Shown in pieces: positions 2,189 through 56,927 of a stretch of 64,000 nucleotides of DNA (positions within the stretch are counted from its first letter, which is position 1; the number at the start of each line of letters is the position of its first letter). The stretch lies in IMG/VR virus record IMGVR_UViG_3300010340_001122; one strand, given 5' to 3'. The translations under genes and the position numbers were made by a program. The stretch comes from a virus. Lineage: Duplodnaviria; Caudoviricetes. Below the pieces are notes generated by a model. That model had not been told where the DNA came from. It saw only the letters and a program-made list of their open reading frames with translations, and did no database searches.

Positions 2189-3244
2189 ATGACAAAAGAA
2201 GATTTTTTATTAAGAGCACGAGAATCACATGGATATAAATATAATTATCCTAATTTAAATGATAAAATATTATCTAATGATGATATTGATATTGAATATA
2301 ATGGTATCATATATAGACAAAAAGTAGTTAAACATATATTATTAGGAAGATGTCCTGAGAAAAATACACCAAGTAAAACAACTGAACAATTTATATCAGA
2401 GGCTAAATTAATATGGTTTGATAAATACGACTATTCTTTAGTAGAATATAAAGGAGCTTTGAAAAAAGTTAAAATAATCTATAAAGGAATTGTTTTTGAA
2501 CAAGTTGCTGTTTCACATTTAAATGGTCAATGTTGTGAAAAGAGTCTTAATCAAGAAAACTTTATTTTAAAATCTAAAGAAAAACATGGTAACCGATATG
2601 ATTATAGTTTAGTAAAATTTAAAAATGGTAATTTTCCAGTATTAATTGGATATAAAGGAATTTATTATCTACAAAAACCATATTATCATCTTTCTGGAAA
2701 TAGACCAGAAAACATAAAATTGGCTGTTAGAAAAACCAATAAACAATTTATTAATGAGTCAAATCAAGTACATGATTTTAAGTATAATTATGATAAACTA
2801 GATTATATTTCCAATCAAACCAAAATTATAATAACATGTCCAATACATGGTGATTTCAAACAAAGACCTCTTTCACATATCCAAGGAAATGGATGTCCAT
2901 TATGTAATGAATCAAAGGGTGAAAAAGAGATTGCTAAATTTTTAGATAAAAACAACATATTATATTATAGACAACATAAATTTCATGATTGTCGTAATGT
3001 ATTTGAATTACCATTTGATTTTTATCTACCTAAATATAGATTTGTAATAGAATTTGATGGAATTCAACATTATGAGCCTATTGAACACTTTGGAGGATTG
3101 AAAGCATATGAATCATTAAAAACCAATGATAAAATTAAAAATGATTATTGTGAGGATAATTATATTGATTTGATTCGTATTAGATATGATCAGATTGATA
3201 GGATATTTGATATTTTGAAAGAAAGTCTTAAAAATAAGATTTAG
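2189..3244 (+). CDS. putative free-standing homing endonuclease (KYDYS repeats plus C-terminal PD-(D/E)XK/Vsr-like domain)
   Basis: Four FI..(A/S)...H..KY(D/N)Y repeats; CPIHG..GCPLC; LPFDFYLP..IEFDGIQHY. Confidence 0.75.
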   Translation: MTKEDFLLRARESHGYKYNYPNLNDKILSNDDIDIEYNGIIYRQKVVKHILLGRCPEKNTPSKTTEQFISEAKLIWFDKYDYSLVEYKGALKKVKIIYKGIVFEQVAVSHLNGQCCEKSLNQENFILKSKEKHGNRYDYSLVKFKNGNFPVLIGYKGIYYLQKPYYHLSGNRPENIKLAVRKTNKQFINESNQVHDFKYNYDKLDYISNQTKIIITCPIHGDFKQRPLSHIQGNGCPLCNESKGEKEIAKFLDKNNILYYRQHKFHDCRNVFELPFDFYLPKYRFVIEFDGIQHYEPIEHFGGLKAYESLKTNDKIKNDYCEDNYIDLIRIRYDQIDRIFDILKESLKNKI

Positions 3245-3945
3245 TCCTTATATGTTATATGAATTTGAATTTGCCAAGCAGTTGGTATAAGTTCTGTGCT
3301 TTTAATATCTATTAGATCTATTTCCTGATTTAGGTGTGATTTAAGAGTTTCGATGCATTGATTAAACTTTATTTCAGAATCTTTATCTAAATAGATTTCC
3401 TCTTGGCCTTTTTTACCTATTTCGGGATTCCAGTGTTCGTTCATAATACTTATTTGTAAGCATTTAGTATGATCCACATTTGCGAGTTCTCCGACTTGAC
3501 CTTTGATATTATCCCAAATATATACTGACATCCATCCATGAAATTTAGGAATTTGTATTCCGGGATTAAAAAACATGGACATTGAGTAGTCACTTAAAAA
3601 ATCCTGGAATACTTCTTTACATATTTCTTCAATTTTGATATCTGTTTCGGTTTTAATATATGAATCAAAATCTCGACTTTCATTTAAATCATTTAATACT
3701 TTATTTAAATTTTCTAAATTGAATCCTTCAAGTGGAGTTCCACCATTTTTTAAATAATTAAAATATAAATCTTGATATTCATCATAAGTTACAATTCTTC
3801 CAAATATATCTGAGTAAATAACATCGGTTATTCCGATTTTTTTCATAGGTGCATTATCTTCTTCACCATAATTAGGACCCATGTGTCCTACTAATTCAGT
3901 TCCAGATATAGATTCTAAGAAGTTTAAATATTTTTTAATCTTCAT
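3241..3945 (-). CDS. hypothetical protein with N-terminal tag (MKIKKYLNFLES)
   Basis: 234 aa ORF; shared N-terminal motif; internal LNE-S. Confidence 0.7.
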   Translation of the reverse strand: MKIKKYLNFLESISGTELVGHMGPNYGEEDNAPMKKIGITDVIYSDIFGRIVTYDEYQDLYFNYLKNGGTPLEGFNLENLNKVLNDLNESRDFDSYIKTETDIKIEEICKEVFQDFLSDYSMSMFFNPGIQIPKFHGWMSVYIWDNIKGQVGELANVDHTKCLQISIMNEHWNPEIGKKGQEEIYLDKDSEIKFNQCIETLKSHLNQEIDLIDIKSTELIPTAWQIQIHITYKD

Positions 3946-4393
3946 TTCTTACTGGTATTTTTTCAAAAAACTCGTCTTCTATTTCTAATGAATAAGTATC
4001 TTTATTAAAATCATAAAATATATTATAAAGAAAATTATCTTTTAAATCAATTTTCTCACCATTTTTTAGTTCTAGAATACAAATTTCATTTTCATAGTCA
4101 TTATAAATAGAGTGTATTTGTATTCCTATTTTACCATTTCTATCAATTAAGTTACAAATAACTTTTTTTTCATTCTGAATAAGATCATTTAATCTCTCAA
4201 AAGTTGATTGTCTGGAAAGCATTGTATAGTCTTGAATATCACTATCACTAATATTGTTATATTTTCCTAAAAAATCTTCTTCTTTTGAGCTCAGTTTCGT
4301 ACTCTTAGAAATCTTATCTAAGATTTTATTTAACTCAATCTCTTTTAGAGATTCAGTTATTCTAAGGTATGATATGAACTTTTTGAACCCCAT
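3935..4393 (-). CDS. hypothetical protein with tag-like N-terminus and DUF6576-like segment
   Basis: MGFKKFISYLRITES; LNKILDKISK...LS.KEEDFL; start could be 4402. Confidence 0.65.
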   Translation of the reverse strand: MGFKKFISYLRITESLKEIELNKILDKISKSTKLSSKEEDFLGKYNNISDSDIQDYTMLSRQSTFERLNDLIQNEKKVICNLIDRNGKIGIQIHSIYNDYENEICILELKNGEKIDLKDNFLYNIFYDFNKDTYSLEIEDEFFEKIPVRNED

Positions 4394-4483
4394 AATCACC
4401 ATATCTAATTTTAATATTTTACAATATATATATTAAGAAATCAATCTATTATTTATATATACTTTGTAAATTAAAGTTATTTG

Positions 4484-12008: not shown

Positions 12009-12020
12009 TAATATATATTA
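12009..12020. promoter_or_regulatory. palindromic late-promoter-like element serving a divergent gene pair
   Basis: TAATATATATTA is a perfect palindrome in the 31-bp gap between starts at 11992(-) and 12024(+). Confidence 0.6.
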
Positions 12021-12023
12021 AAT

Positions 12024-13124
12024 ATGAAGTATATTTTTAATTTCATTTCATTCAATGAAGAGATAAATCCGAAAGACATATTTTTTATTCAATCTAATTT
12101 TGATAAGTATTTTACAATAGCATACGAATTTGAAATAGAGACTGATGATTCTGAAAACTATCAACATGATTTTGATGAGATTGATGATGATGTATTAGAT
12201 GATACATTTAAAGATGTTAAAAAGGAATTGAACTTAACAAGAAGATCTGATACCAATTTTTTAAAAAATTTATTAGATTCAATTTTAGAGTTAGTTGATA
12301 TTGGAGAACTAGATGAGAAATCATTTAATTCGATATTTGATCTGTTAAATCCAATTGATGATATTCAAATTAAAATATCAGAACACACTAAGTCAATTTT
12401 ACTTAGTCAAATAACATCTAATGATTTCAACTATCTAAGTGAAATGGTTAGCCAACATCTAAAACCTTTTTTAGATAAATGGTCCGATGATATCGATCTT
12501 ATTGTTGATGTTACTTTGGATAGAGGTATAGAAATAAAACCAAAAACATATGTAGTAGGAATTTCAAAAGGAATGGAAATGATAGAAGATTTCTATTCAG
12601 CACTTGATTCACAATCATATTGGAAGTTTGCCCCTACTACCGGGTTACATATAAATATTGGAACAACTGAAAATGTAGAATGGAATCCACTCAAAGGATT
12701 ACTCATAATGGATGATTTTAGTTTTAATAAAGAAAGAGTTCCTTTAGTTTTTAAAGATATGACTTGGAGACAGAATAATAAATTTTGTGGATCTCTTTTA
12801 GAATCTATTTATAAAATGGACTTTAAAAAAAGATCTATTTTGAAAAATAAGTTCAATATAGATGATATTAAAAAAACTGAAATTGATATCAATTCTTTTC
12901 TAACAAACAAGGTTAAAGTTGATGGTTTGAAGAATTTTGGATTTAATATAACTAGAATTGAGCAAAATTATGTTGAGTTTAGATATGCTGGTGGTGATAT
13001 TTCTAAAGAAACCTTGAGTGATAAGCTAAAATATTTTAGCTTTCTTGTGTATTGTATGACTAATGTTGAATATAAACGTAAAGAATACTTGAAGAAGTTA
13101 TATAAATTTATAGATTCTTTATAG
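12024..13124 (+). CDS. putative amidoligase (COOH-NH2 ligase, Amidoligase_2-like) with N-terminal tag
   Basis: AYEFEIE, D.TL..GIEI, TTGLHINIG, YVEFRYAGG; N-terminus MKYIFNFISFNEE. Confidence 0.75.
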   Translation: MKYIFNFISFNEEINPKDIFFIQSNFDKYFTIAYEFEIETDDSENYQHDFDEIDDDVLDDTFKDVKKELNLTRRSDTNFLKNLLDSILELVDIGELDEKSFNSIFDLLNPIDDIQIKISEHTKSILLSQITSNDFNYLSEMVSQHLKPFLDKWSDDIDLIVDVTLDRGIEIKPKTYVVGISKGMEMIEDFYSALDSQSYWKFAPTTGLHINIGTTENVEWNPLKGLLIMDDFSFNKERVPLVFKDMTWRQNNKFCGSLLESIYKMDFKKRSILKNKFNIDDIKKTEIDINSFLTNKVKVDGLKNFGFNITRIEQNYVEFRYAGGDISKETLSDKLKYFSFLVYCMTNVEYKRKEYLKKLYKFIDSL

Positions 13125-13496
13125 CTTGGTCCAATTTAAATTTGGATAATTTTGAATTATTTTATCCCAAAATCCTCCACTAACATCTTGGTCTATAACT
13201 ATTTTAAAATTATTAGGTAGTGTTTCAAATATTTTAATTAACTCATCAATTAACCTTCTATCAGAAGTTTTATTTACTATTGATTTGATAGTTACACTAT
13301 TTTCATTGACTTCTAATAGTAATGCTTTTATTAGATTTTTCGAATCTATTCTAACTATTGGATTTCCAGATTTGTTAATTAGTGTTGATGCGTATATTTT
13401 ATTTGCTACTATTTTAACATATGGGAATATTTTTAATATCTGATTTTTCAATGATGATATTGTATCATATGAATTGTATTCTAGTATATTTTTCAT
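13119..13496 (-). CDS. hypothetical protein, possible GNAT-like fold
   Basis: VTIKSIVN...IVIDQDVSGGFWDKI; start overlaps the upstream stop (ATGA). Confidence 0.5.
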   Translation of the reverse strand: MKNILEYNSYDTISSLKNQILKIFPYVKIVANKIYASTLINKSGNPIVRIDSKNLIKALLLEVNENSVTIKSIVNKTSDRRLIDELIKIFETLPNNFKIVIDQDVSGGFWDKIIQNYPNLNWTKL

Positions 13497-14107
13497 TTTA
13501 TTGGACAATGGTTTGCTGACCAAATATATCTATGGTCTCTTTTAATATTTAAACCTATTTTTTCGGCTAATGTAAAAACATCATCTAAACATTCAGAATC
13601 AGAACCACCTACTATTGTAATTGTTTTGCCTTTTAGTTTATTAAGTATTTCATAAAGTTTTTTTGGACAATGAAACCAGACATGATTATTTCCAATATAT
13701 GTTATAACAGTTCCTTCTTTTGTTGGAAAAGTATCTCCTTTTTTAAGTTGTTTTTTATTTTCTAGATCTTTTACTTTATTATAAGTTTCTTTTGATAGAA
13801 TTTTCTTATAGAAGTCAGCATTTACATTATAATTATATCTCTTTTCTATTATATCTTTTTGATTAGGAAACTGATAAAAGTTATCATGTATTGGTATCTC
13901 TGGATCTTCATCATATAAGAAATCTTTATCCACATTTCCTAAAAAGTGATTATCCCATATTTGATATACAACATTAAAGTTATTACAATATTTTGTTAAC
14001 TTATTTATATACATCTCAGTAAAGAATTTTTTAAACGATTTCTGAACATCAACTACTATTAATATGTCTGAATGTTCATAATTCTCAAATGTCTTGATGA
14101 ATCTCAT
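13493..14107 (-). CDS. isochorismatase/cysteine hydrolase family protein with N-terminal tag
   Basis: ILIVVDVQKSF, IIEKRY, TIVGGSDSECL (Asp-Lys-Cys triad pattern); MRFIKTFENY. Confidence 0.7.
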   Translation of the reverse strand: MRFIKTFENYEHSDILIVVDVQKSFKKFFTEMYINKLTKYCNNFNVVYQIWDNHFLGNVDKDFLYDEDPEIPIHDNFYQFPNQKDIIEKRYNYNVNADFYKKILSKETYNKVKDLENKKQLKKGDTFPTKEGTVITYIGNNHVWFHCPKKLYEILNKLKGKTITIVGGSDSECLDDVFTLAEKIGLNIKRDHRYIWSANHCPIK

Positions 14108-14122
14108 ATACTATATATAAAT

Positions 14123-14171: not shown

Positions 14172-14759
14172 TTACAGTGGTAACTCTTCAGTTCCTTCTT
14201 CTTCATCATTTTCCTCATCTTCACCAACTTCTTCAAAATCATCTTGAGCTTGTACTTGAGGTTGAGCTTGTGTTTGAACTTGTACTTGAGGTTGAGCTTG
14301 TACAGATTGATCTCCTTGTTCAGTTTGAGCTTGTGGTGCCATTTGTCCTTGAGCTTGTGGTGCCATTTGTCCTTGAGCTTGTGGTGCCATTTGTCCTTGA
14401 GCTTGTGGTGCCATTTGTCCTTGAGCTTGTGGAGTCGTTTGTCCTTGAGCTGCTTGTCCTTCACCTTGAGCTTGTGCGTCACCCATAAGAGCACCAGCTG
14501 GGATTTGATCTACATTTAAGAAATTAGTATTGATGTATTTAACAATTTCTTCTGCGATATCTACATCTCCAAAAAATTGGCGTAAATTCTTACCTGTGGT
14601 ATCTTTTACTTTTTTAACATAGGCGTTAACTAGAGATTGTGGAATATCTAAAAAAGCTCTTACTTTATAAAGATCATTAACCTGAAGAACAGCTTCTTTA
14701 ATAATCTCTTCTCTTTTTCTGTTAAATGTGTATTTTTCAAATTTTCTAAGATGTTTCAT
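14172..14759 (-). CDS. hypothetical protein with N-terminal tag, Gln/Ala-rich repeats and acidic tail
   Basis: MKHLRKFEKY; (QGQMAPQA)n; C-terminal EEVGEDEENDEEEG. Confidence 0.8.
   Translation of the reverse strand: MKHLRKFEKYTFNRKREEIIKEAVLQVNDLYKVRAFLDIPQSLVNAYVKKVKDTTGKNLRQFFGDVDIAEEIVKYINTNFLNVDQIPAGALMGDAQAQGEGQAAQGQTTPQAQGQMAPQAQGQMAPQAQGQMAPQAQGQMAPQAQTEQGDQSVQAQPQVQVQTQAQPQVQAQDDFEEVGEDEENDEEEGTEELPL
14325..14444 (-). repeat. 24-bp coding tandem repeat (4 perfect plus 1 variant)
   Basis: TTGAGCTTGTGGTGCCATTTGTCC at 14325, 14349, 14373 and 14397; variant at 14421. Confidence 0.95.
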
Positions 14760-14804
14760 CTTCTTTTTCTTAATTTTTTATAATGTATATATTAATGTTT
14801 AAAA

Positions 14805-17408: not shown

Positions 17409-19517
17409 TTAATTATTATTTTTAAACGGATTATTCCAAGGATTGGATAATACATCATTTTTGTATCTATTTTGAAGCTTCTTTCTCCTTATATCTAAAA
17501 CTTGAGTGTAATCTACACCTTCTGTATATTCTATTCCGTCTAATGTTGCTCTTATATAGTTCAACATTTCAGAATCAGGTAAAGATTCTGAAAATTCCTC
17601 AACCATTTGTCTAAAATCATTTTTTTGAAATATTGCACACATATCTATTATACTCATAACTGTATCATCATGTGATGATCCATCCGCAGCATATCTTACA
17701 TTACCTGCGGCTGTTGTATGTTTTATAAATGTTGTCATTTCCGAAATATTTATATCATTTGTTATTATTATAGATCTTTCTTCCATTTTATCTTGATACT
17801 CTTTAACCAATAGGTTTTTATTTTCACCAACTTTAAGTCCTATTTTTTCATCAAGTGCATCTGCGCGATGTTTGAATCTAAAAAATATTGATGATCCATA
17901 ATCATTTCTACCATCAAATACATGAGGCATATGAGCTAGTAGTTCATTTCCATAAGTATTGATCTCTAAAACTATTTTAACATTGTCTGGGTTGAAATAT
18001 TCAAATGATATTAAATATAGAATTTCAGCTAGTTGTTGTACAGATACTAAATTACTTCTAAACATACCTACCTGTTCCAATTTGAAAAAATCAACAATTG
18101 ATTTATATTTATGTTTTTGGTGTTCTATTAATTCTTTTGTTTTAACATTTAATTTAAATATATTAATTATTGAATAATCCTGTCCTAATCCTTCTGATAC
18201 ATCCACAGATATTATTATTTTATAATCTTTTCTTTTTAGTGGTAAAAATATATCATCGTCTTGAATCCATTTCATATCTTGATACGAAAATTTCAATTTT
18301 TCAAGTTCATCAAGTTTTTCCCACTCATATATTTTTTTATTTTTAGTTAAATCATCGATGAGAGTTTCGGTTAATAAACTTCTTGAAGAATTTATAAATC
18401 TTAAATCATATTCCTGGTTAAATGCTTCTTCACCGCCAATATCCTTAATAGTTTCTTTTTTCCAAGTCGTTATTTCTGAAAACTCTAATAGTCTTATTCC
18501 ATTAAATGATTCGGATAAAATATCTTCTTCAGAACAGTCTATTGTATTTAGTGTTGTAATTACCCATTTTTTTAACTCATCATTATATGATAAGGTGTGT
18601 TCATTTTTTGGATATTTTTCAATTAAATAATCGAGTAATTCATTTTTGTTTATTTTATTTTCTTCTACTTTTTTTGGATTTAGTCTAATATAAGTAGAGA
18701 ATCTTTTAGGAACTTGCCACCAATATACTCTTTTTGCGACATATGATGATTTTTCTCCCTCTGGTTTTTCAGCATCTGTTAATAATTTGTGAAAAAGGTT
18801 AAACCCATCAGGAGTTGATGTTATGATTATTTTTGAATTATCTATATTAGATACTGTCGGAAATACTGATTTGTAGAATTTATCAGCTATATTTCCTGGT
18901 AGATATGCAAACTCATCTAAGTATAAAAAATCAGCAGCCTGCCCAATAGATGCAGTTTTAGTTGTTGCGAATCCTTTTATTCTACTTTTATTTTCAAAAA
19001 CCATAAATTTTTGATTCCAGTTTATAATTCCCTGTTGTAAAAAGAAAGGCAGTTTTTGATATATTTCCCTTATTTTATCTAACACCTCAATTGCTGTATC
19101 TAATTTATTTGCTGTTACTAATACATTTTTATTATTATTAAATAAAACATAATGTAGCATCATAATTGATGAGCAGATGGTTTTACCTATTTGACGACTT
19201 GCCATCAATATATTAAATCTATTATTAAAGAAATTATCTAGTATTTCATTTTGATAGTCTCTAAGTGGTATTATAATTGGTTGTCCTTCTTCGCCTTTGA
19301 TATAACAATAGGTTCTTGCGAAATAATGAATATCTAAAGCACATTTTATATATTCTTCTTGTTCATCATTTGACATCTTAAATGTTAGACCAGCAGTTCT
19401 TAGACCCACTACTTTTTCAAAAAATGGATTTTCTAGTCTATTTAAAACAAAACCATTGTTTATTTTTTCAGTAGCTTCTTCTACCATTTTTGTTGTCCAA
19501 ATTATTTGTCTTGACAT
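17409..19517 (-). CDS. gp17: terminase large subunit
   Basis: LRDYQ, SRQIGKT, LYLDEFA, IITSTPDG, FNQEY, VDVSEGLGQDYS, LEINTYG, SHDDTVMS. Confidence 0.95.
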   Translation of the reverse strand: MSRQIIWTTKMVEEATEKINNGFVLNRLENPFFEKVVGLRTAGLTFKMSNDEQEEYIKCALDIHYFARTYCYIKGEEGQPIIIPLRDYQNEILDNFFNNRFNILMASRQIGKTICSSIMMLHYVLFNNNKNVLVTANKLDTAIEVLDKIREIYQKLPFFLQQGIINWNQKFMVFENKSRIKGFATTKTASIGQAADFLYLDEFAYLPGNIADKFYKSVFPTVSNIDNSKIIITSTPDGFNLFHKLLTDAEKPEGEKSSYVAKRVYWWQVPKRFSTYIRLNPKKVEENKINKNELLDYLIEKYPKNEHTLSYNDELKKWVITTLNTIDCSEEDILSESFNGIRLLEFSEITTWKKETIKDIGGEEAFNQEYDLRFINSSRSLLTETLIDDLTKNKKIYEWEKLDELEKLKFSYQDMKWIQDDDIFLPLKRKDYKIIISVDVSEGLGQDYSIINIFKLNVKTKELIEHQKHKYKSIVDFFKLEQVGMFRSNLVSVQQLAEILYLISFEYFNPDNVKIVLEINTYGNELLAHMPHVFDGRNDYGSSIFFRFKHRADALDEKIGLKVGENKNLLVKEYQDKMEERSIIITNDINISEMTTFIKHTTAAGNVRYAADGSSHDDTVMSIIDMCAIFQKNDFRQMVEEFSESLPDSEMLNYIRATLDGIEYTEGVDYTQVLDIRRKKLQNRYKNDVLSNPWNNPFKNNN

Positions 19518-22329: not shown

Positions 22330-22397
22330 GTGTTTCTGTGTTTGTTTTACAAATATACAAATTATATTTTATATATACTAAAAAAGATTATTTTTTT

Positions 22398-24971: not shown

Positions 24972-25358
24972 ATGAATCATATTAAAACATTTGAAGGATT
25001 TTTCACAAATAAAAGTAAAAGGAGTATTTTAAGTAATTTGTTTAGTAAAGAAGATGATGAGTTTGCTCAAAAAATTTTAAATTCTTTAGAATCAAATAGA
25101 ATTGGTGATATATCCAGATATGGTGATTATAAAAGATCAGTTAAATTACAATCTAATGGAAATACATATCTAGTTACCGTTCAGAAAAGTTCAAAAAGTG
25201 ATTATGTCTTAATAATAAATAATAAACATTTTATAGATCGAAATACTGGTAAATCAACTGTTTCGAAGAAAATTATTAAAAATATTTGGGAATTTTTGGA
25301 TAAAGAACATGATAAAAAATCTTTTAATAAGGAAGATATGAAGAAAGATTTTGAATAA
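24972..25358 (+). CDS. hypothetical protein with N-terminal tag
   Basis: MNHIKTFEGF. Confidence 0.75.
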   Translation: MNHIKTFEGFFTNKSKRSILSNLFSKEDDEFAQKILNSLESNRIGDISRYGDYKRSVKLQSNGNTYLVTVQKSSKSDYVLIINNKHFIDRNTGKSTVSKKIIKNIWEFLDKEHDKKSFNKEDMKKDFE

Positions 25359-25383: not shown

Positions 25384-25407
25384 AATTATATAATTAATAT
25401 ATAGACT

Positions 25408-26028
25408 ATGAAATATTTGAAAAAGTATATTCTTTTTTTAGAGGATATTGAAAATATAGTAACAGATGATATTAGTGCATTACCATCAGATCCAGAATTA
25501 GACTCAAAGACTGATAAAACAAAATCTGAGTCTTTATCAGACTCACAAGCACTTTTAAGAGAATTTCAAGATAAAAAGAGTAAAATAGAGAGTATTTTTA
25601 AGGATCCAAAAATAACTGATGATGTTTCACTTGATAATGCCTTATTAAATGGTGTTTATAATAGTAAAAGGGAAGTTAAAGATAGAAATAAATGGATTAA
25701 AGAGTTTGAATCAATTCTTCGAGCAGAAAGAAGAAAGAATGCTCTTCAATCAGCTATAGGTAGTGATGAGGATCAAGTTAAAAAAACTAACGATGATATA
25801 AATCGATTAAATAATGAGATATTAAATGCTTCTGACAAAAGAAAAGATCAGATTGTTTCATCTCTAGAAATGAATAAAAAAAGACTTAAAGAAATTAAAG
25901 ATAATATTCTTTTGAATAAGAAACTACTTTCAGAAGATATAACTAATTGGAATAAAAATCTTGAGAATTTTAAAAAGTCTATTAAAATTGAGGAAGAAAG
26001 AATAAAGAATTTACTGTCTAAAGTATAG
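25408..26028 (+). CDS. coiled-coil hypothetical protein with N-terminal tag
   Basis: MKYLKKYILFLED; ATATATA-GACT-ATG. Confidence 0.75.
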   Translation: MKYLKKYILFLEDIENIVTDDISALPSDPELDSKTDKTKSESLSDSQALLREFQDKKSKIESIFKDPKITDDVSLDNALLNGVYNSKREVKDRNKWIKEFESILRAERRKNALQSAIGSDEDQVKKTNDDINRLNNEILNASDKRKDQIVSSLEMNKKRLKEIKDNILLNKKLLSEDITNWNKNLENFKKSIKIEEERIKNLLSKV

Positions 26029-36496: not shown

Positions 36497-36581
36497 AATT
36501 TTATATTTAAAAGTAAATATACTAAAAATAATAAGTATATTTACAAAAAATTATAATCGTTTTCTTTTTAATATATAATCA

Positions 36582-37433
36582 ATGAAACATCTTAAAAGAT
36601 TTGAGGAATTGGACCTCCTCGATCTTGATAAATATAGAAATTTTTTAAAAAAGTATCAAAAGACTGGATACATATCTACTTCCTCTGTTAAGAAATTAAA
36701 AGAATGGGGGTTAGATATTAGAGATTTTTCTCATGTTGAGAATCAAGTTATAAATTGTTTAGATTTTTTTAGAGTTGGTGATAGAGATTTATTTTCAGAT
36801 TATTTTATAGAAATAAAGGATAAATACCCTGATATATCATATTATTTATATTATTCTTTAAATGTAGAACCTTTAGGATCTACACATTGGTCTACATATA
36901 GTGGAACATTGGATAAATTTAATTTTATTGTTTCGGTGGATGAAAAAAATCTACCATCAATGAGGGGACCAAATATTGATAATAATATTAATATTATTGA
37001 TAAAGTAATATCCGGAATTGAAGATAGTCGTAAAAAAATCTATCAAAAGGGTAAAGATATGTTAAGTGGTAATGTTGTCAATAAAACAGCATTTGACACT
37101 TTTTTTGCAAAAAGTTATTTAAAATCAGGATCTTCAAATCAAATAGAGAATTGTAAAATATTACCAGTTATATCTATTAAAATATTTTTAAACACATATG
37201 ATGATGATGCTTGGGTTAATCATCAAGATGATTATGGAAATTATTATAAATTTATTAAAGAGAAACGAAAAGAGGCGGCTAATGATATTAAACTAAATTT
37301 AGATACAATTTTTAAATCATATTTTTATTCAATAGGTTATCCTAATATTAATTATAAAATAGAAAGGCCATGGGTCGGACACTATGATGATGGCGATATT
37401 GTTGATTTTAACATTAATTGTGAATTAAATTAA
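36582..37433 (+). CDS. hypothetical protein with N-terminal tag
   Basis: MKHLKRFEE; ATATATA-ATCA-ATG. Confidence 0.75.
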   Translation: MKHLKRFEELDLLDLDKYRNFLKKYQKTGYISTSSVKKLKEWGLDIRDFSHVENQVINCLDFFRVGDRDLFSDYFIEIKDKYPDISYYLYYSLNVEPLGSTHWSTYSGTLDKFNFIVSVDEKNLPSMRGPNIDNNINIIDKVISGIEDSRKKIYQKGKDMLSGNVVNKTAFDTFFAKSYLKSGSSNQIENCKILPVISIKIFLNTYDDDAWVNHQDDYGNYYKFIKEKRKEAANDIKLNLDTIFKSYFYSIGYPNINYKIERPWVGHYDDGDIVDFNINCELN

Positions 37434-37885
37434 TAAAATATATAATTACTTTTATTATCTATTCTTTTAACAACTAAATATAGACCGGGTACTTGACTAT
37501 ATTTAGTCGGATCTGTAAAAATATCAGAATTTATATCAGATTGATTTTTTTTATTTATAATATATCCGCTAACTCCATCCATATCACTATCAGTCAAAAA
37601 ATAAAGATTAGCTATGAATTCTTCGGAACTTAGGTGAGAATTGATATTCTCTAATTCATTTAGAAAGTCAAGTATAGAATCTTTATTAAGAGAAACCGCA
37701 AAAACTACCTTTATTTTTTCACTATCATTCCCTTTTACTATATGTTCTATTGATGTTGGAATAACTTCAATAAAATTTAAATCATTTAGTGTCGTTACTA
37801 TATCATCTATCATTTGAACTGTACTGGATGTATTATCATTTTTCTTTTTAAATAAATTTAAGAATCCTTCATATTTTTTAATCAT
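37430..37885 (-). CDS. hypothetical protein with N-terminal tag
   Basis: MIKKYEGFLNLF. Confidence 0.7.
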   Translation of the reverse strand: MIKKYEGFLNLFKKKNDNTSSTVQMIDDIVTTLNDLNFIEVIPTSIEHIVKGNDSEKIKVVFAVSLNKDSILDFLNELENINSHLSSEEFIANLYFLTDSDMDGVSGYIINKKNQSDINSDIFTDPTKYSQVPGLYLVVKRIDNKSNYIFY

Positions 37886-38154
37886 AACTTTTGTAATTTT
37901 ATTTTTAAATCACCGCTTCCTTTTATTAATCTATGATATATACCTTTAGGTATAAAAACTTTACCTTCAATTTTTATTGGTAGTTCATTGTCTAATTGAA
38001 ATTTCCAATTAGTTTCTTCAATAGATTCTATTATTCTATCCTCTCTATCACGGTGCCACATAAGAGATTCATCACCTATATCACTTTTAAAAATTCTTAT
38101 AGATTCATTTGAGTTTTTAATCTCCTCATTAAATGGTAGTGTCATATTTTCCAT
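37882..38154 (-). CDS. small cupin-like phage protein
   Basis: LMWHRDREDR..WKFQLDNELP..VFIPKGIYHRLIKG. Confidence 0.65.
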   Translation of the reverse strand: MENMTLPFNEEIKNSNESIRIFKSDIGDESLMWHRDREDRIIESIEETNWKFQLDNELPIKIEGKVFIPKGIYHRLIKGSGDLKIKLQKL

Positions 38155-38573
38155 AAAAATATTGATATTGTTCCTAAGTTAGATGTCATATAATTAATAC
38201 AATATTCTCTAATATTATTTAAATTAACACTATATACACTGACTCCTTTTTCGATAGTCATGCTATTTTTCCAACCTTGTGATTCCGTGTATTTAATACA
38301 ATCTTCAATTATTTTAATTATTTCTTGTATTTGCTTATAATCCGGTCTTATTCTAAGACATAAATAATCATTAAATCCTTTTTCAACTCCTGTATTTCTA
38401 TACCAATTCTCACCATATATCATATAAATGGTTTTACCAGTTATTTCATAGTCAGATCCTAAATCTACAATATCTAAAAGTCTATCTTCTAAATCTTCTT
38501 TGATATTATTTTCATTCTCGGTTAGATCTATTTTATAGTTTTCGAATAATTTATATGATATAATATTTTTCAT
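38142..38573 (-). CDS. hypothetical protein with N-terminal tag
   Basis: MKNIISYKLFENY. Confidence 0.7.
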   Translation of the reverse strand: MKNIISYKLFENYKIDLTENENNIKEDLEDRLLDIVDLGSDYEITGKTIYMIYGENWYRNTGVEKGFNDYLCLRIRPDYKQIQEIIKIIEDCIKYTESQGWKNSMTIEKGVSVYSVNLNNIREYCINYMTSNLGTISIFLWKI

Positions 38574-38929
38574 AACGTAAATATTAGATGTATATCTCTT
38601 TCTATTCCTTTGGAGTCTACTGTAATATCTTCAAAGTCAAATTCAATTTTAATATCTGGATATTCTTCTTTGACTCTATTAATACAAGACTTCAAATTAT
38701 TTGAGAAGTTGTATACCTCTTTTATATTTTCCTCGTAATAATCAAACATTGATGTCTTTTTTAAAATTGGTTCTTTTATGAAGATCTCATAATAGTCTTC
38801 TATTTCATCCACATCACCATCTCGATTAAATCCTTCAGCTCCCTCGTCTAAAAACTCTGAGAATATAAATTTTAAATATTGAATATCTAAACCTTGCGAA
38901 TTAGATTCATTAAATTTTTTAATTTTCAT
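38570..38929 (-). CDS. hypothetical protein with N-terminal tag, paralog A
   Basis: MKIKKFNES; near-identical to 39443-39817. Confidence 0.8.
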   Translation of the reverse strand: MKIKKFNESNSQGLDIQYLKFIFSEFLDEGAEGFNRDGDVDEIEDYYEIFIKEPILKKTSMFDYYEENIKEVYNFSNNLKSCINRVKEEYPDIKIEFDFEDITVDSKGIERDIHLIFTL

Positions 38930-39399
38930 GATATGATTATTTTATAATTTTCTTTAAATCTATCGATTTTACTTAACCAATTTTGTTTAAAATCACATTC
39001 TTTTACAAATTTTTGTATTCTTGGTTCTATATAAGTTAGTAAATTTCTTATCTGATTAACCAAAGCTGATGTCATTTTTGGATTTTTATATATTGAATTA
39101 ACATCTTTAGTTAATTCAGCATAATTCATTCCATTTATTAATGGTTGTCTTAGTCTTTGAGACATTAATATTAATTCTTTAGTTGCATTTTCATCAATTC
39201 CCATTTTAGTAACTTGTGATAGATTCAAAGTTATAAATATTCCAAAATCATATAGAAATTCATTCATAAATTTTTTATCAACAGATTCAACTGTATTTTT
39301 ACACAATTTGGTATAATCCAATTTACTTGTGATTTTATAATTTTTATGCATATAGGGAACATAATCATTAATTTCTTCAAAAAATTTTAAATATCTCAT
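38926..39399 (-). CDS. hypothetical protein with N-terminal tag
   Basis: MRYLKFFEE. Confidence 0.7.
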   Translation of the reverse strand: MRYLKFFEEINDYVPYMHKNYKITSKLDYTKLCKNTVESVDKKFMNEFLYDFGIFITLNLSQVTKMGIDENATKELILMSQRLRQPLINGMNYAELTKDVNSIYKNPKMTSALVNQIRNLLTYIEPRIQKFVKECDFKQNWLSKIDRFKENYKIIIS

Positions 39400-39442
39400 A
39401 ATAGTTTTATCATATTTTATATTATTTTTTAATTTTCATTTT

Positions 39443-39817
39443 TTAGATATGATTACTCAGTGTAAATATTAAATGTATATTTCTTTCTATCATTCCTTGT
39501 CGATCTATTTGAACATCTTCAAAGTCAAATTCAATTTTAATATCTGGATATTCTTCTTTGACTCTATTAATACAAGACTTCAAATTATTTGAGAAGTTGT
39601 ATACCTCTTTTATATTTTCCTCGTAATAATCAAACATTGAAGTATTTTTTAAGACAGGTTCTTTTATAAATATCTCATAATAGTCCTCTATTTCGTCCGT
39701 ATCTCCATCGCGATTAAATCCTTCGGCACCCTCATCTAAAAATTCCGAGAATATGAATTTAAAGTATTGAATATCTAACTCGTTAGAATTTGACTCGTTA
39801 AATTTTTTTATTTTCAT
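39443..39817 (-). CDS. hypothetical protein with N-terminal tag, paralog B
   Basis: MKIKKFNES; duplicate of 38570-38929 at 888-bp offset. Confidence 0.8.
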   Translation of the reverse strand: MKIKKFNESNSNELDIQYFKFIFSEFLDEGAEGFNRDGDTDEIEDYYEIFIKEPVLKNTSMFDYYEENIKEVYNFSNNLKSCINRVKEEYPDIKIEFDFEDVQIDRQGMIERNIHLIFTLSNHI

Positions 39818-39827
39818 AATTTATATA

Positions 39828-40604
39828 TTAATTGTAGAATGGTAATAAAATTTGATGATATCCTTCGTGATTATATGATGGTAATAATATTGCACAATCA
39901 AAATAGGATCCTAATCTTTTCATAAAATCAGTATTTTTTGTAAGTTTTCTTTTCATCCATGGCTTTTCAAAACTTGGAATCTTTATTATAACCGAATTAG
40001 ATTCATATGAGGCGATGGATGTTGTATTAATAATTTTAGAAGCTTTTGACATATACTCTTCATCTAAATCTTCGAAATCTGCTTGTAGTGCATCTAAAAT
40101 AAAATCTTTGTCCGTTTCGTTAAATTTTATTTTATTTGGTATTTCCCAAATAGTTCCTGTAATCATTTTTTTAACTTCTTGTCCTACATATATGTAGGAT
40201 AAATGAATATATTCTTGAGTATATAATTTGAAACGATTTTCTTTTTTATAAACATCTGTATAGTTTAAATAGTCATAATTAAATATAAATTTTTCAAGTT
40301 CTTTTCTATATCGATAACTATTTCGGCCTTCTAAAAAATAATTAGACCAATTAACATATTCGTTGCATATAAAGGTTATATCACCATCTTTTGATGAGTA
40401 TTCCAGTTCATCGATAAATTCGAATATTTCTTTCATCTTTAAAAATGTACCATAAGAAAACTCTAGATTGATACCACTTCTCGTTAATTTATTAGAATCT
40501 TTGAGAAGTGTGTATAAGTAATTAGAATAATATTTTAATTTATCAATTATTTCTGATTTAGATTGAACTCCTTCAAATATTTTATATGGTTTTAAATGTT
40601 TCAC
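39828..40604 (-). CDS. hypothetical protein with N-terminal tag (GTG start)
   Basis: MKHLKPYKIFEG; ATATATA-AATA-GTG. Confidence 0.75.
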   Translation of the reverse strand: MKHLKPYKIFEGVQSKSEIIDKLKYYSNYLYTLLKDSNKLTRSGINLEFSYGTFLKMKEIFEFIDELEYSSKDGDITFICNEYVNWSNYFLEGRNSYRYRKELEKFIFNYDYLNYTDVYKKENRFKLYTQEYIHLSYIYVGQEVKKMITGTIWEIPNKIKFNETDKDFILDALQADFEDLDEEYMSKASKIINTTSIASYESNSVIIKIPSFEKPWMKRKLTKNTDFMKRLGSYFDCAILLPSYNHEGYHQILLPFYN

Positions 40605-40607: not shown

Positions 40608-41945
40608 TTATATATAAAAATAATCTGGATAATTATCTGACTTTAATCTATATCTCATTATTTGTCTATCTATACCAGAACCTTCAACCGCCTTTGAAAT
40701 CGATTCATATTCCTTACCTAAAATTGACACACTTTTTGTTTTTGGTAATCCAGTTTCTTTTAATTCAACTTCTTTATTTAAATAAAACCACTCCGGGTAG
40801 GATTTTGAGTTTAATCTCCAATTAATATAATCATTTGATTTATTTAAATATTTTGCAGCTTCCGTAATAGATTCATATATAATACCACCTATTGATATTC
40901 TTTCTTTTTTTGATAAATATGGATCAATATTTTCATATTTTTTACACTTTTTATTTAATTCTTCATCTTGAAAAAGATAATTTTTGAAATGTGATGATTT
41001 TAGTCTTGAACGAATTAAAGACCTATCAATATTTAGTTTTTTTACTGCATCAGATATTGATTCATATTTAATATCGTCAATTATTATTTTTAATTTTGTT
41101 GCTTGTTCGAATTTTTTTCTATTCTTTTTTAGACTAATTTTAATCTCTAATTTTAACTTATCACCAATATGTTCATAATATTCTTTTCTATTTTTGAAAT
41201 ATTTATTTGGTATAAATTTTAAGTAAGAAGTCAGTCCTTCTATATTTTTATTTTCTATGTGGGTTTCTATCTTATTAAATTCTTCATCTTCTCTAATTTT
41301 TAACTTTCCAAAAATGAACCTCAATTCGTGACCAAAAAAATCATAAAATCCATTTGCATTTTTTAGAAAATTATGTGAAGATCTCTTTTTAATTATTTTT
41401 AACTCGTCTATGAATTCATATATTTTACCGATATCAATTTGGTCCTTTATAAATTGGCATCTTTTTTTAAGATTTTCATTATAATCTTTCCATTTTTGTT
41501 CATTTTTAATTATTGCTTTTGATGATAAGATACTTTTATGTATATGTGGTTTTAATTTATTTTTATAATCCTTTGCTTTTTCCTCACCGAAAGCTTCCTC
41601 ATATGTCTTTCCTTTTTTTGGATTATTTTTTGATATTTTTTCTTTTATTATTTCTAAATCTGGATGATTGGATAGTGTATCACCGCCATCCCCACCCGGC
41701 GATATATTATATCCAATTTTTTTATCTATCGAATTATAGAATGATATCCAATAAATCTCTTTTTTGGATAACTCATTATAGTCATCAGTTGTGTCTATAA
41801 TTTCTTTAATGAAGTTTTCACTACCATATTTTTTTAAGGCTCGCTTAATTAGTAATCCTGATCCAAAATATTTAGGATCAGATGTTGTGTCTTTTCCTAT
41901 ATAAATTTTATTGTTTATTAGGTTGGTAACTTTATAAATTTGCAT
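40608..41945 (-). CDS. GIY-YIG (Seg-like) homing endonuclease with three C-terminal NUMOD1-like repeats
   Basis: QIYKVTNLINNKIYIGK..YFGSG..GYNISPGGDGG; three I.I....YESI..A......R.RL.S..YP repeats. Confidence 0.88.
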   Translation of the reverse strand: MQIYKVTNLINNKIYIGKDTTSDPKYFGSGLLIKRALKKYGSENFIKEIIDTTDDYNELSKKEIYWISFYNSIDKKIGYNISPGGDGGDTLSNHPDLEIIKEKISKNNPKKGKTYEEAFGEEKAKDYKNKLKPHIHKSILSSKAIIKNEQKWKDYNENLKKRCQFIKDQIDIGKIYEFIDELKIIKKRSSHNFLKNANGFYDFFGHELRFIFGKLKIREDEEFNKIETHIENKNIEGLTSYLKFIPNKYFKNRKEYYEHIGDKLKLEIKISLKKNRKKFEQATKLKIIIDDIKYESISDAVKKLNIDRSLIRSRLKSSHFKNYLFQDEELNKKCKKYENIDPYLSKKERISIGGIIYESITEAAKYLNKSNDYINWRLNSKSYPEWFYLNKEVELKETGLPKTKSVSILGKEYESISKAVEGSGIDRQIMRYRLKSDNYPDYFYI

Positions 41946-41997
41946 AATGATAATTTTTATTTACCATTATATATTAAATATTTTACCTTCCTTTAGA

Positions 41998-42578
41998 TTA
42001 CCAAAAACCTGGATAGGTGCGTCCGCCCCAAAGATGTCCGTACCGATTTGCACGACACGACCAAATCCAGGAGTTGTTTTATCTTTTTTCAAATGACATT
42101 GATGACGAGATGCAAATGATTTTCTAGCTTTTGGATCAGATACTTTAGCGCTTAATCCACCAGAAACATCTCCAAAATTGACTACTTTGACATTTCCAGT
42201 TTTTGGATTCTTTACAAATACTTTATATTTCTTAGGACCTGAACTCCTTGTTGGATGATTTAATTCAACTTCTCTTCCTTTATATTCGGCTTCATTGAGT
42301 TCATACATAATTTCCAATGGTAGATCTAGTGGGACCAATTCACCTTCAAACATTTCAAATTTACCTATATCTGAAGTTTCAAAGAGTTCTTTATCATGTC
42401 CTGATAGTTCAACCAATCCTTTATCATATAGTTTTCTAGATTCTTTTAAAAGATTAAAATATGATTCTGATCCATACCTGAATATATTTTCAGTTATGGA
42501 CATATCATTATTTATATGATATTGAAGATGTTCAGAAATAACCTCTTCTTCTACATTGAATCTTTTAATATATTTCAT
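41998..42578 (-). CDS. conserved phage protein with N-terminal tag; frame broken near 42064
   Basis: MKYIKRFN...LNE-AEYKG...KARKSFASRHQC..KDKTTPG continues in the -1 frame as WSCRANRYGHLWGGRTYPGFW with TAA at 41998-42000. Confidence 0.7.
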
Positions 42579-42662
42579 AATATTTTAAATTTTTATTATA
42601 TATTAATTCTTCATCAAGAATTAAAGTTTTTATATATATTCAAAATAGTATTTGATTAGTAG

Positions 42663-53110: not shown

Positions 53111-53153
53111 ATAAAAATGAAAAAAGACGAATTAATTCGTCTTTTTTCATTTT
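53111..53153 (+). terminator. long inverted repeat/terminator
   Basis: AAAATGAAAAAAGACGAATT/AATTCGTCTTTTTTCATTTT. Confidence 0.75.
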
Positions 53154-53210
53154 ATACATATAATAAATATAGCATTAAAGGGCTTAGTGTCCTAAAAAAT
53201 AAATGCTAGA

Positions 53211-53576
53211 ATGTATCTTAATAATAAAGATTTGTATGTTGAAATGATTGTATCAAAAGCTCAAGGTCGATTGACTATAAAAGCTGAAAAAATGTTAGAA
53301 CTATTGGCTAAAGAAACCATTAAAAAAATGAGATATTGGTCAAATGATGATAAGAATGATTGTTACCAATCTGGTATTTTAGATATGTTCCAGAATTGGT
53401 ATAATTTTAATGAAGAAAAATCAGTAAATGCTTTTGCTTATTTCACAGAAGTCTTTAAAAGAGGAATTGCCAAAGGATTTAATGAACTATATAAAAAAAA
53501 GGGAGATAATGATAATTTGATAAAAGTTATTTCCATTGAAGGATCAAATGATGGTCAAGGATTACACAGTTTATAA
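53211..53576 (+). CDS. gp55: late transcription sigma factor, gp55-like
   Basis: YLNNKDL, WYNFNEEKSVNAFAYFTEV matches the gp55 pattern YVNNK..NFDPEKS.NPFAYFTQI. Confidence 0.8.
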   Translation: MYLNNKDLYVEMIVSKAQGRLTIKAEKMLELLAKETIKKMRYWSNDDKNDCYQSGILDMFQNWYNFNEEKSVNAFAYFTEVFKRGIAKGFNELYKKKGDNDNLIKVISIEGSNDGQGLHSL

Positions 53577-53592
53577 TTATTTAAAATAAAGT

Positions 53593-54660: not shown

Positions 54661-54706
54661 TCCATTAAACTTTTTGATGGAATATTATAATATAAATAAA
54701 AATAAT

Positions 54707-55012: not shown

Positions 55013-55313
55013 TCTACTATTTATTTTATCTACAATATACTATCTATTTAATCGTAAACATTTACTATTAAAAATTGATAATAGAACTTATAGATCAAAA
55101 TCTAAAGTATTTTTTGATATAATTTACTACTTTACTGATATTTTATACCTAATTTGGATAGTAATAATGATGTTTTATAATATTAAAATGTCTTTATTAT
55201 TAATATTATTAATTATTTTTAGATGGATTTTTTTAAATCCTTTTAAAAATAAACAAGACATGACTTATATTGTTTTAAAATTAATGATTTTATTTTCTAT
55301 TATTATAGGTTAA
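54999..55313 (+). CDS. small integral membrane protein
   Basis: Three or four hydrophobic segments. Confidence 0.65.
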   Translation: MKFFSLLFILSTIYYLFNRKHLLLKIDNRTYRSKSKVFFDIIYYFTDILYLIWIVIMMFYNIKMSLLLILLIIFRWIFLNPFKNKQDMTYIVLKLMILFSIIIG

Positions 55314-55836
55314 ATCTTTTTAGATGATCTTCTGTTATAACAATAAACTCCCATCCTTTTTTATCACAAAATTTAATCATGGTGTTCCATTTATCTCTAT
55401 TTTTCTGAGCCATTTTTAAATCATACTCAAAGTTTTTTAATTTTTTTACAGTTGCTGATGATTTTGGAATTTCTAATTTTTTTTCTTGTAGTGCGATTAC
55501 CATTTCGAATTCTTTTTTAGGTTTTACCTCAGCAACCACTTTTTTGACCATTCCGTCATTTAATTTCATTTCGTAGTAGAAGTCTGGATAATAACTATGG
55601 CTTTTAACTTTTATATCACCATTATCAAAATGAGTCATTTGATACGGTATTGTTATACATTCAGCACCCCATTTAGAAACTTTTTCACTATTATCTAACC
55701 AAGTCATTATTTTTAATTCCCAGGAGCTTCTATAATAAACTCCTCCTTGTGAGTTTAATTTTAGAACTTTATCTTTATTTTTGGGGATGAAATTACCTTG
55801 ATGATAATTTTTATTTTTAGGCACACTGTTTAACAT
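55303..55836 (-). CDS. gp4: head completion nuclease (TnsA-like)
   Basis: YRSSWE, W.AE...IPY, YYPDF, EVKP, KW...C.K.GWEF.VITE. Confidence 0.88.
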   Translation of the reverse strand: MLNSVPKNKNYHQGNFIPKNKDKVLKLNSQGGVYYRSSWELKIMTWLDNSEKVSKWGAECITIPYQMTHFDNGDIKVKSHSYYPDFYYEMKLNDGMVKKVVAEVKPKKEFEMVIALQEKKLEIPKSSATVKKLKNFEYDLKMAQKNRDKWNTMIKFCDKKGWEFIVITEDHLKRFNL

Positions 55837-55853
55837 ATTAATATATATCTTAT

Positions 55854-56549
55854 ATGGGTGCTTTGCAAGAAAGAATAGAATTAAATAAAAAAGTTTTTGG
55901 AACAGATATAGTAGATTTCTATAAGAATAATACTTTATTTATGTATGATAAATATTCAAAAACTGATGAAATGTGTGATGCTATTTCAATTTCTGAAATA
56001 TCTGTTGGTAATTTTTACTTTTTTCACTATCACGATCCATCTAATTGGATGAAATATTCTCCAATTTTTTGTGTAGATTATAGAAAAGTTAAGGATATGA
56101 TAATTATTTTAGGATTAAATTTTAATTTTATACCTCTAGAAATTAGAGGGACTATTTTTGATAAGTTTATATCTGAACAAGATTTTGAAAATAATTCATC
56201 ATTAGAAGTTGATTTCACTGGAGTTTATACTGAGTTATTAAAATATGGATTCGAATATGCTATAGTTGAATATAATGCTATACAAATTAGCTTAGTGCAT
56301 AAAATAAATTTAGAACTACTACCTAGATTTTTATATTCATCTCATCCGAAAAATAAATATGATCCGAAAAAATTAATGGAGATTTGGACTACTAAGTTGA
56401 AAACAAGAGAAAAACGTCATCAAGAAATGACATTATCTATTCTTAGTGAATTTTATGATGTTACCTCAGAAATATCTAATAAATATGATGCCTTAATTGG
56501 ACACATACAGAGATTGCAAGATAGTTTTAATAAATTTAAAAATAAATAA
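55854..56549 (+). CDS. gp2: DNA end protector-like protein
   Basis: GNFYFFHY.D....YSPIF.V....LGLNFNFIP..IR. Confidence 0.6.
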   Translation: MGALQERIELNKKVFGTDIVDFYKNNTLFMYDKYSKTDEMCDAISISEISVGNFYFFHYHDPSNWMKYSPIFCVDYRKVKDMIIILGLNFNFIPLEIRGTIFDKFISEQDFENNSSLEVDFTGVYTELLKYGFEYAIVEYNAIQISLVHKINLELLPRFLYSSHPKNKYDPKKLMEIWTTKLKTREKRHQEMTLSILSEFYDVTSEISNKYDALIGHIQRLQDSFNKFKNK

Positions 56550-56579
56550 TAATATATAAATAAAATTTATTCTGTAAGT

Positions 56580-56927
56580 ATGAAGCATTTAAAAAAATTT
56601 GAGGATCTTGAATATAAAGATTTATTGGCACAACAATCTAAACTAAGAGATGAGATGGAAAAATCTCGATTAGAAGAAGAGAAAAGAAGAAGAAGTGAAC
56701 TCTCTGGTAATCACTTATCTAAATTATCATCGGATATTGAAAAAAATAAACAATTAAATAAAAATCAGGAAGAACGTCAAGAATTAACACATTTAGTTGT
56801 TCAGTCCTTGATATACTCTGAGCAAAATAAAGATGGATTTGATAATTTTAAAAATGATTTAAAACAATTATTAAATAATTATTCTTTAGATAAACTTCCT
56901 AGAAGTGGGTCTTCAATTTATAGGTAA
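56580..56927 (+). CDS. hypothetical protein with N-terminal tag
   Basis: MKHLKKFED. Confidence 0.75.
   Translation: MKHLKKFEDLEYKDLLAQQSKLRDEMEKSRLEEEKRRRSELSGNHLSKLSSDIEKNKQLNKNQEERQELTHLVVQSLIYSEQNKDGFDNFKNDLKQLLNNYSLDKLPRSGSSIYR

Follow-up and report, generated by a model that had tools for sequence, protein, structure and literature searches.

The capsid targeting sequence (CTS) of phage T4 was reportedly described by Mullaney and Black in 1996, on the internal proteins IPI-III and Alt. It is the only feature common to these diverse internal proteins and loads them into the scaffolding core, the proteins themselves being accessory and hypervariable (PMC3012670); within it, residues 4 and 7, identified by genetics, act in targeting and residues 8 and 10 in processing by gp21 (PMC9026906). 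The T4 proteins ipII and ipIII begin MKTYQEFIAE. A short shared N-terminal peptide, here called the tag, is found on otherwise unrelated proteins encoded in a 64-kb stretch of viral DNA (IMG/VR record IMGVR_UViG_3300010340_001122; G+C 26-32%), the whole of which is referred to as the window. The capsid protein of the window is 66-70% identical to those of the uncultured phages LR745206.1 (635 kb) and LR756502.1 (642 kb) and ~50% identical to those of two phages of 636 and 735 kb, identities that mark the window as part of the genome of an AT-rich megaphage belonging to the Mahaphages.

In sequence, the megaphage tag is like the T4 CTS at the positions that are important in T4. It takes up the first ~10 residues of otherwise unrelated, hypervariable accessory proteins, and it combines Met-Lys with a hydrophobic residue at position 4, an aromatic residue at position 7 and a closing Glu. 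One megaphage form of the tag is nearly MKTYQEFIAE, and the megaphage likewise has a head of the gp20/gp21/gp22/gp23 type. Compared with the T4 peptide, however, the megaphage consensus is MK[YH]LKxF(N)E, with three co-existing forms, and stands on ~100 genes per genome as against 3-5 in T4; its clients are acidic where those of T4 are basic, the canonical (L/I)-x-E site is frequently absent, and the tag is strictly coupled to one promoter class.

Encapsulins offer a second point of reference, in that a short, unstructured terminal peptide sends diverse enzymes into an HK97-fold shell; those cargo-loading peptides are usually C-terminal, bind the shell directly and involve neither a protease nor injection, whereas the megaphage tag is N-terminal. 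The phiKZ-like giant phages (SPN3US, 201phi2-1) also hold many head-internal proteins, which are cut after Glu by a T4-related prohead protease and whose propeptides are thought to target them into the prohead (PMC5694885, PMC10052503). Those propeptides, however, are 80-130 residues long, occur on paralogs only and carry S/A/G-x-E sites, in contrast to one short tag on unrelated proteins. Finally, T4-type phages have mobile regulatory cassettes, non-coding elements made up of a promoter and a stem-loop, in which it is the DNA that is conserved, whereas the synonymous sites of the tag vary like the rest of the genome. No description of the tag was found in literature on the tag itself, on CTSs outside T4 or on Mahaphage biology.

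The tag is modular and constrained as a peptide

Genes were called as the longest ATG-initiated open reading frames (ORFs), and genome-wide counts were taken from the 635-kb relative LR745206.1 (891 ORFs) rather than from the window's own genome. All of the starts and N-termini listed in a preliminary description of the window were found in the sequence; 15 of the about 18 tagged proteins claimed there are clear cases, the remaining three (4393, 13496 and 22398) being weak. Of 62 gene starts in the window, 7 match the strict pattern M-[KRN]-x-[LI]-[KR]-x-[FY]-[EN], compared with 5 of 19,619 internal positions. A position-weight matrix built from the strict cases, applied with a score cut-off of at least 3, selects 9 of the 62 gene starts but, with all frames considered, not one of the 1,219 other ATGs, while in LR745206.1 it selects 92 of 891 gene starts versus 22 of 12,885 other ATGs, with ~0.3 expected from internal positions. 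At the DNA level, the pattern has 30 matches in LR745206.1, versus 0 for the reversed control. Among 51 seed tags, position 3 is Y, H, F or W without exception although the selection pattern had left it free; the hydrophobic (L or I) and aromatic (F or Y) residues at positions 4 and 7, those of T4 IPIII targeting, are likewise present in all 51, the seed pattern itself having required both.

The tag is also modular, and it is constrained at the level of amino acids, not of codons. The bodies behind it had been called otherwise dissimilar, and with the first 15 residues trimmed no BLASTP similarity is indeed detected among the tagged proteins of the window, save for the pair at 38929 and 39817. 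At each tag position, synonymous codons are used in the same proportions as genome-wide, and between orthologs the tag varies at synonymous sites, with different Leu, Phe and Glu codons. These two observations together indicate selection on the peptide, and the codon usage means that neither AT-rich bias nor a DNA or RNA element explains the motif; AT-rich 5' codon bias, which the preliminary description had itself raised as an objection, finds no support in codon usage or in the counts at other ATGs. As origins of the tag, a nucleotide-level element is rejected by the codon usage, paralogy by the unrelated trimmed bodies, and composition bias by the counts at internal positions and other ATGs.

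The clear tagged ORFs of the window, with the AT-rich upstream element discussed in the next section, are the following.

3241-3945, minus strand: 234 aa, T4-like long form MKIKKYLNFLES; unit headed by TAATATATA at 4427-4435
12024-13124, plus strand: variant tag, 366 aa, MKYIFNFISFNEE; TAATATATA at 12009-12017
13493-14107, minus strand: 204 aa, MRFIKTFENYE; TTATATATA at 14112-14120
14172-14759, minus strand: 195 aa, MKHLRKFEKY; TAATATATA at 14786-14794
24972-25358, plus strand: 128 aa, MNHIKTFEGF; unit headed by TTATATATA at 22369-22377
25408-26028, plus strand: 206 aa, long form MKYLKKYILFLED; TAATATATA at 25395-25403
36582-37433, plus strand: 283 aa, MKHLKRFEEL; TAATATATA at 36569-36577
37430-39817, minus strand: operon of small tagged ORFs headed by TAATATATA at 39822-39830, in the order 39817 MKIKKFNES, 39399 MRYLKFFEE, 38929 MKIKKFNES, 38573 MKNIISYKLFEN, 38154 untagged, 37885 MIKKYEGF
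39828-40604, minus strand: 258 aa, GTG start at 40604, long form MKHLKPYKIFEG; TTATATATA at 40609-40617
41967-42578, minus strand: 203 aa, MKYIKRFNVEEE, phrog_7595 of unknown function; TAATATATA at 42597-42605
56580-56927, plus strand: 115 aa, MKHLKKFEDLEY, in a variable slot 5' of the portal gene; ATAATATATA at 56549-56558

The three weak cases are:

3935-4402, minus strand: MGFKKFISYL, from 4393
13119-13496, minus strand: MKNILEYNSYD
22398-24962, plus strand: 854 aa, MKKLLTRDSYLKE

Within families, conservation of the tag exceeds that of the body (mean column identity 0.69 versus 0.52). The tag columns M1, H3, F7, E8 and Y12 are invariant among relatives of the 56580-56927 protein, the bodies of which share only 31-38% identity. 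Tagged orthologs of the 13493-14107 protein are 58-69% identical to it, homologs of this protein being found only in uncultured megaphages; the LR745206.1 ortholog of 14172-14759 (67% identical) is tagged as well, as is the distant (30%) homolog of 36582-37433 in the same genome, and the ortholog of 3241-3945 begins MIKKFYQFINE. The positional homolog of 12024-13124 in LR745206.1 (39% identity) does not have the first 8 residues, and 24972-25358 has no homolog there. In total, 8 of the 15 clear tagged genes are without a homolog in LR745206.1, while most untagged genes of the window have orthologs at 50-88% identity. The ORFs at 38929 and 39817 are paralogs, 90% identical. Next to the GTG-started ORF 39828-40604 lies a gene for an I-TevI-like homing endonuclease (40608-41945), which ends one base before the GTG and has the TTATATATA element within its end.

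Two AlphaFold2 models show the tag as a disordered stretch that is not part of the fold. In that of the 13493-14107 protein, residues 1-10 have pLDDT values below 50 and the fold begins at residue 15; its body gives a weak Foldseek match to a nicotinamidase/isochorismatase-like fold (probability 0.9, E 0.027) and is possibly of that type. In that of a protein family from the slot before the portal gene (mean pLDDT 89.7), residues 1-8 are of low confidence and lie outside the fold; a fold search with this model gave no match.

Three forms of the tag can be distinguished: a short form, MK[YH][LI][KR]x[FY](N)E; a long form, MK[YH]LKxYK[IL]FE[SN]; and a T4-like form, M-x-(x)-K-K-[YF]-x-x-[FY]-[IL]-x-E, exemplified by MKIRKYIEFITE and MRLKKYLEFIKE, which share Y-x-E-F-I-x-E with T4. 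The forms are equivalent, since in one orthologous family beside the capsid gene the same body follows either MKYLKYFES (continuing KKVKFPD) or MIKNYQLFLES (continuing KKDKF). In LR745206.1, 92 ORFs carry the short or long form and ~22 the T4-like form, together ~114 of 891 (~13%), and the clade would use the tag on roughly 10-13% of its genes. Usage varies by lineage, the 735-kb phage having the T4-like form only and a 462-kb phage MKYIKEYE. Elsewhere in IMG/VR, the short form is found on many AT-rich contigs, often in arrays of 5-11 small genes within ~10 kb; searches for capsid and portal genes in five motif-rich fragments, only 29-84% complete, gave no match.

The tag is tied to a late-type promoter class

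The preliminary description associated most tagged genes or their operons with an ATATATA element. This is borne out, and more fully than was claimed, in that T[AT]ATATATA heads the units of every tagged gene in the window; it is not confined to them, for it also stands before untagged late genes. It precedes the portal, capsid, sheath, terminase and UvsX genes as well as large structural-type genes, and in both the window and LR745206.1 its distance from the following ATG is either 4-5 nt or 20-26 nt. The 4-5 nt spacing suggests that many late mRNAs are leaderless or nearly so. The genes concerned, and a candidate sigma factor, are located as follows.

854-2077: UvsX (Pfam)
17409-19517: T4-type large terminase, TerL (Pfam)
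26095-30303: tail sheath, very long (Pfam)
53211-53576, plus strand: gp55-like late sigma factor, 121 aa, untagged, matching gp55 of P-HM1 (E 9e-5)

A second class of genes is preceded by host-type TAnnTTTG promoters. Both classes were set by motif alone. Counts for LR745206.1 genes with their own upstream region (tagged genes of the short and long forms), and for all genes classed by the head of the transcription unit to which they belong, are as follows.

Tagged, own upstream region: phage-type only 34, both 1, neither 3, host-type only 0
Untagged, own upstream region: phage-type only 93, both 6, neither 227, host-type TAnnTTTG only 71
Tagged, unit level: late-type 78, host-type 3, neither 25
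Untagged, unit level: late-type 147, host-type 159, neither 429

At the unit level, the association of tag and late-type promoter has an odds ratio of 28 (p 8e-18). An equal frequency of the motif in early or replication ORFs, another objection raised beforehand, is not seen, given 78 tagged genes in late-type units and 3 in host-type units. The host-type class of LR745206.1 contains DNA ligase, RNase H, dCMP deaminase, an aminoacyl-tRNA synthetase and ClpP, and the phage-type class includes the portal and capsid genes. The tagged genes share the promoter class, as assigned by motif, of the head proteins. From this gene content and the presence of the gp55-like factor, T[AT]ATATATA is read as a late promoter analogous to TATAAATA of T4, the timing being inferred from which genes carry it. 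The gp55-like protein is 88% identical in LR745206.1; a Pfam search with it gave no match.

The association is further illustrated by a natural case of tag loss. The slot 5' of the portal gene is variable in 80 related contigs. In contigs L167-L246 this slot, which separates homologs of window 55854-56549 from the portal gene, is hypervariable; it is occupied by tagged proteins of 104-158 aa, by one of various small proteins without a tag or by a 345-aa protein, or is empty. One slot family exists in two versions, of 158 aa (starting MKHLRKFEEL-DYSTY) and of 148 aa (starting M-N-YSTY), which are homologous end to end (hhalign probability 100), so that the difference between them is exactly the 10-residue tag MKHLRKFEEL. 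Every tagged member of the family is preceded by TAATATATA, every untagged one by TAnnTTTG. The untagged members group as a single clade in the tree (support 97/91), which indicates a single event and not 15 independent ones; among the tagged members, the tag is invariant over bodies only ~45% identical.

With regard to the host, Shine-Dalgarno sequences are not visible in the window, TAnnTTTG promoters are detected, and a gene of the host-type class in LR745206.1, which also includes the phage ClpP, carries a C-terminal sorting domain of the type IX secretion system (T9SS; Por_Secre_tail). The first two features and the sorting domain point to a host among the Bacteroidota. The combination of the sorting-domain gene with a phage-encoded ClpP fits such a host.

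Head module and the capsid-targeting reading

The phage has a T4-type head module, within which conserved tagged genes occur.

56979-58703, plus strand: T4-like portal (gp20), untagged (Pfam Portal_T4, E 2e-56); TAATATATA upstream
59647-61800, plus strand: apparent prohead protease-scaffold fusion, with a gp21-like N-terminal domain of ~170 aa, repeats, an acidic low-complexity region and a conserved C-terminal domain
61835-63559, plus strand: major capsid protein, gp23-like, untagged (Pfam Gp23, E 3e-27)

A scaffold core, a gp21-type protease and a gp23-type shell are thereby all represented, the protease by a weak assignment. The 59647-61800 protein appears to be a protease fused to a scaffold and is the candidate for both reader and processor of the tag. 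Its scaffold part consists of ~12 tandem 14-residue repeats, YSEY[LIV]AENLDKNI[AS], each with an [LIV]-A-E site; the motifs GEFDHP and SSRAAG are invariant in 28 relatives, and relatives of this head scaffold protein are encoded on 528 contigs. The capsid protein keeps a conserved, T4-like propeptide, which contains KWSPVLENMG, and a site S-I-N-E|N lies at the position of the T4 gp23 cleavage point. Similar sites accompany the tags. A hydrophobic-x-Glu site with the Glu at residues 6-14 is found in 78% of tagged versus 27% of untagged proteins, and in 60% S or N comes directly behind the tag Glu, as it does in the sites of the capsid and scaffold. Of the three forms, the long and the T4-like agree with (L/I)-x-E (as [IL]-F-E and [IL]-x-E, respectively), while the short forms F-N-E and F-E-E have F at P3.

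The tagged proteins are small (median 163 aa), hydrophilic and soluble, with segments resembling transmembrane helices in 3% compared with 10% of untagged proteins, and their genes are clustered, forming 28 adjacent pairs where 9.4 are expected. A Pfam domain is found in only 4 of the 92 tagged proteins of LR745206.1 (two NUDIX, one M15 peptidase and one DUF), whereas the same scan of two untagged control sets yielded 29 families (71 proteins) and 49 families (84 proteins). The proposal that the cargo includes enzymes is therefore barely supported: no Pfam domain is found in the tagged proteins of the window, and searches of Pfam and PHROG with these proteins gave no enzyme match. Like those of the T4 internal proteins, the tagged genes are accessory and hypervariable; most of their products, which evolve fast and belong almost all to unknown families, are likely host-takeover or counter-defence factors.

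We put at about even chances the reading that the shared N-terminus is a greatly expanded, T4-type capsid-targeting propeptide. The preliminary analogy with T4 capsid targeting is partly supported: it holds, better than had been expected, as regards the head module, positions 4 and 7, the closing Glu, the third form and the promoter class, while the acidic clients and the (L/I)-x-E sites often missing from the short form speak against it. If the reading holds, docking on the core, packaging, cleavage and injection would proceed as follows. A tagged protein would be made late, from the T[AT]ATATATA promoter class, alongside the head proteins. By way of an unstructured tag of 9-11 residues, with a basic residue at position 2, a hydrophobic one at 4, an aromatic one at 7 and a closing Glu, it would dock on the assembling scaffold core, itself presumably built by the protease-scaffold fusion protein, and the gp23-like shell would then enclose it. 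In many cases the gp21-like protease may remove the tag after the Glu, and the mature protein would be ejected with the DNA into the next host. A bolder proposal, that more than 100 accessory proteins per genome are capsid-loaded and that proteins switch between a late, tagged, injected mode and an early, host-promoter mode by swapping tag and promoter, is advanced only tentatively and seems to us somewhat improbable.

A number of observations weigh against the capsid-targeting reading. The first group concerns the machinery and the cleavage sites: the protease assignment rests on the weak Peptidase_S77 match of an ortholog (E 1e-4, short of the Pfam cut-off), the 59647-61800 protein has no sequence match in the PDB, a strict [LIV]-x-E site lies near the tag in only 36% of tagged proteins, and many short-form tags (FEK, FEG, FES) are without a hydrophobic residue at P3. 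The second concerns the clients, which are acidic (median pI 4.8, 83% below 6, versus 5.5 for untagged proteins) where the T4 internal proteins, which are small and DNA-associated, are basic; moreover, ~114 cargo species per genome far exceed any known virion. The strict short form is absent in T4, cyanophage P-HM1, pelagiphage HTVC008M, the Lak phage Lak-B5 and Tenacibaculum phage pT24. Furthermore, UvsX, methylases and helicases are found in the T[AT]ATATATA class too, and the concerted tag loss and promoter switch is one evolutionary event, with otherwise only 3-4 small families showing the same pairing.

Other explanations of the tag and its significance

Some of these objections would be met if the peptide were an address label for a different late-phase reader, such as an unfoldase or protease by which these proteins are removed or matured (the tag being an N-terminal degron), a chaperone or a localisation factor. 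A modular, unstructured tag under amino-acid-level selection would suit any such reader, as would acidic clients too numerous for any known virion cargo; LR745206.1 encodes ClpP, and N-termini of the type Met-basic-hydrophobic-hydrophobic resemble one class of ClpX recognition signal. This explanation nevertheless leaves unaccounted for the positional match to the T4 CTS and the T4-like third form, the closing Glu and the S or N next to it, a feature shared with the capsid and scaffold sites, and the conserved tagged genes in the head module. In addition, ClpP sits in the host-type promoter class and no candidate reader gene was found in its favour. On balance a different reader seems rather unlikely.

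A further explanation denies that the tag is an address label and makes it the passenger of a mobile late promoter-plus-start cassette, which seeds or captures genes through recombination and is kept because it aids, by an effect on initiation or of the nascent peptide, the expression of late mRNAs, which are often leaderless. The tag and T[AT]ATATATA do travel together, the gap from element to ATG often being 4-5 nt, 96% of tagged proteins are without a known domain, and arrays of tagged genes lie in variable regions. The bimodal spacing between element and ATG, however, shows that tag and element are not one fixed cassette, and ~60% of tagged genes lie inside operons without a promoter of their own, while the portal, capsid and sheath genes have the same promoter and no tag. 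The constraint is, moreover, on the peptide, given that synonymous usage is that of the genome and codons vary among orthologs, and the tag is invariant through long divergence of the bodies. For these reasons a passenger cassette is regarded as quite improbable. Chance, AT-rich composition or hidden paralogy, for which the 27% G+C of the genome, the abundance of Lys, Ile, Asn, Phe and Tyr and the frequent MK starts of untagged genes might speak, is excluded for practical purposes by a roughly 60- to 440-fold enrichment at gene starts over internal positions and other ATGs, by reversed-pattern controls with 0-1 matches, and by bodies that are unrelated by BLASTP.

Should the capsid-targeting reading be correct, the protein arsenal of the largest phages known would exceed that of any described virion in diversity by an order of magnitude, which would help to explain the role of the hundreds of orphan genes in huge phages. 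It would also supply a simple sequence rule for picking candidate injected counter-defence proteins from metagenomes, and a second, natural set of packaging tags for engineered protein delivery. Should the reader be a different one, a label on one gene in eight, tied to one promoter class, would still constitute an undescribed layer of organisation in phage proteomes, and one that is abundant in environmental viral contigs.

Several minor observations complete the analysis. The window also encodes a clamp-loader ATPase, a gp47-like phosphoesterase, a GDP-mannose dehydratase and the I-TevI-like homing endonuclease mentioned above, and a Megablast search with 10 kb of it against phage records gave 0 matches. 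A generic CTS-like pattern has a baseline of 3 of 229 ORFs in T4 and 11 of 281 in pT24, compared with 113 of 891 in LR745206.1. In the T4 record (AF158101.6), a 54-aa ORF at 18966-19130 (minus strand) begins with the CTS-like MKTFKEFIKE. In the cultured Tenacibaculum jumbo phage pT24 (LC168164.1), several hypothetical proteins start M[KR]xIxxY[IV]xE, with T4 CTS spacing (e.g. 89992-90780, 92740-92994, 173362-173994 and 179862-180485; one N-terminus is MRDIRDYIKE), which gives a culturable system for examining the tag idea; BPT24_126, _130, _196 and _207 have N-termini of this pattern. Directly 3' of the capsid gene, a 'peptidase' of 452-513 aa (phrog_4191, E 1e-61 to 1e-68; contig positions L244:14516-16006 and L182:14450-15808) carries the T4-like tag MKLFKFGQFFES in some lineages and is untagged in others.

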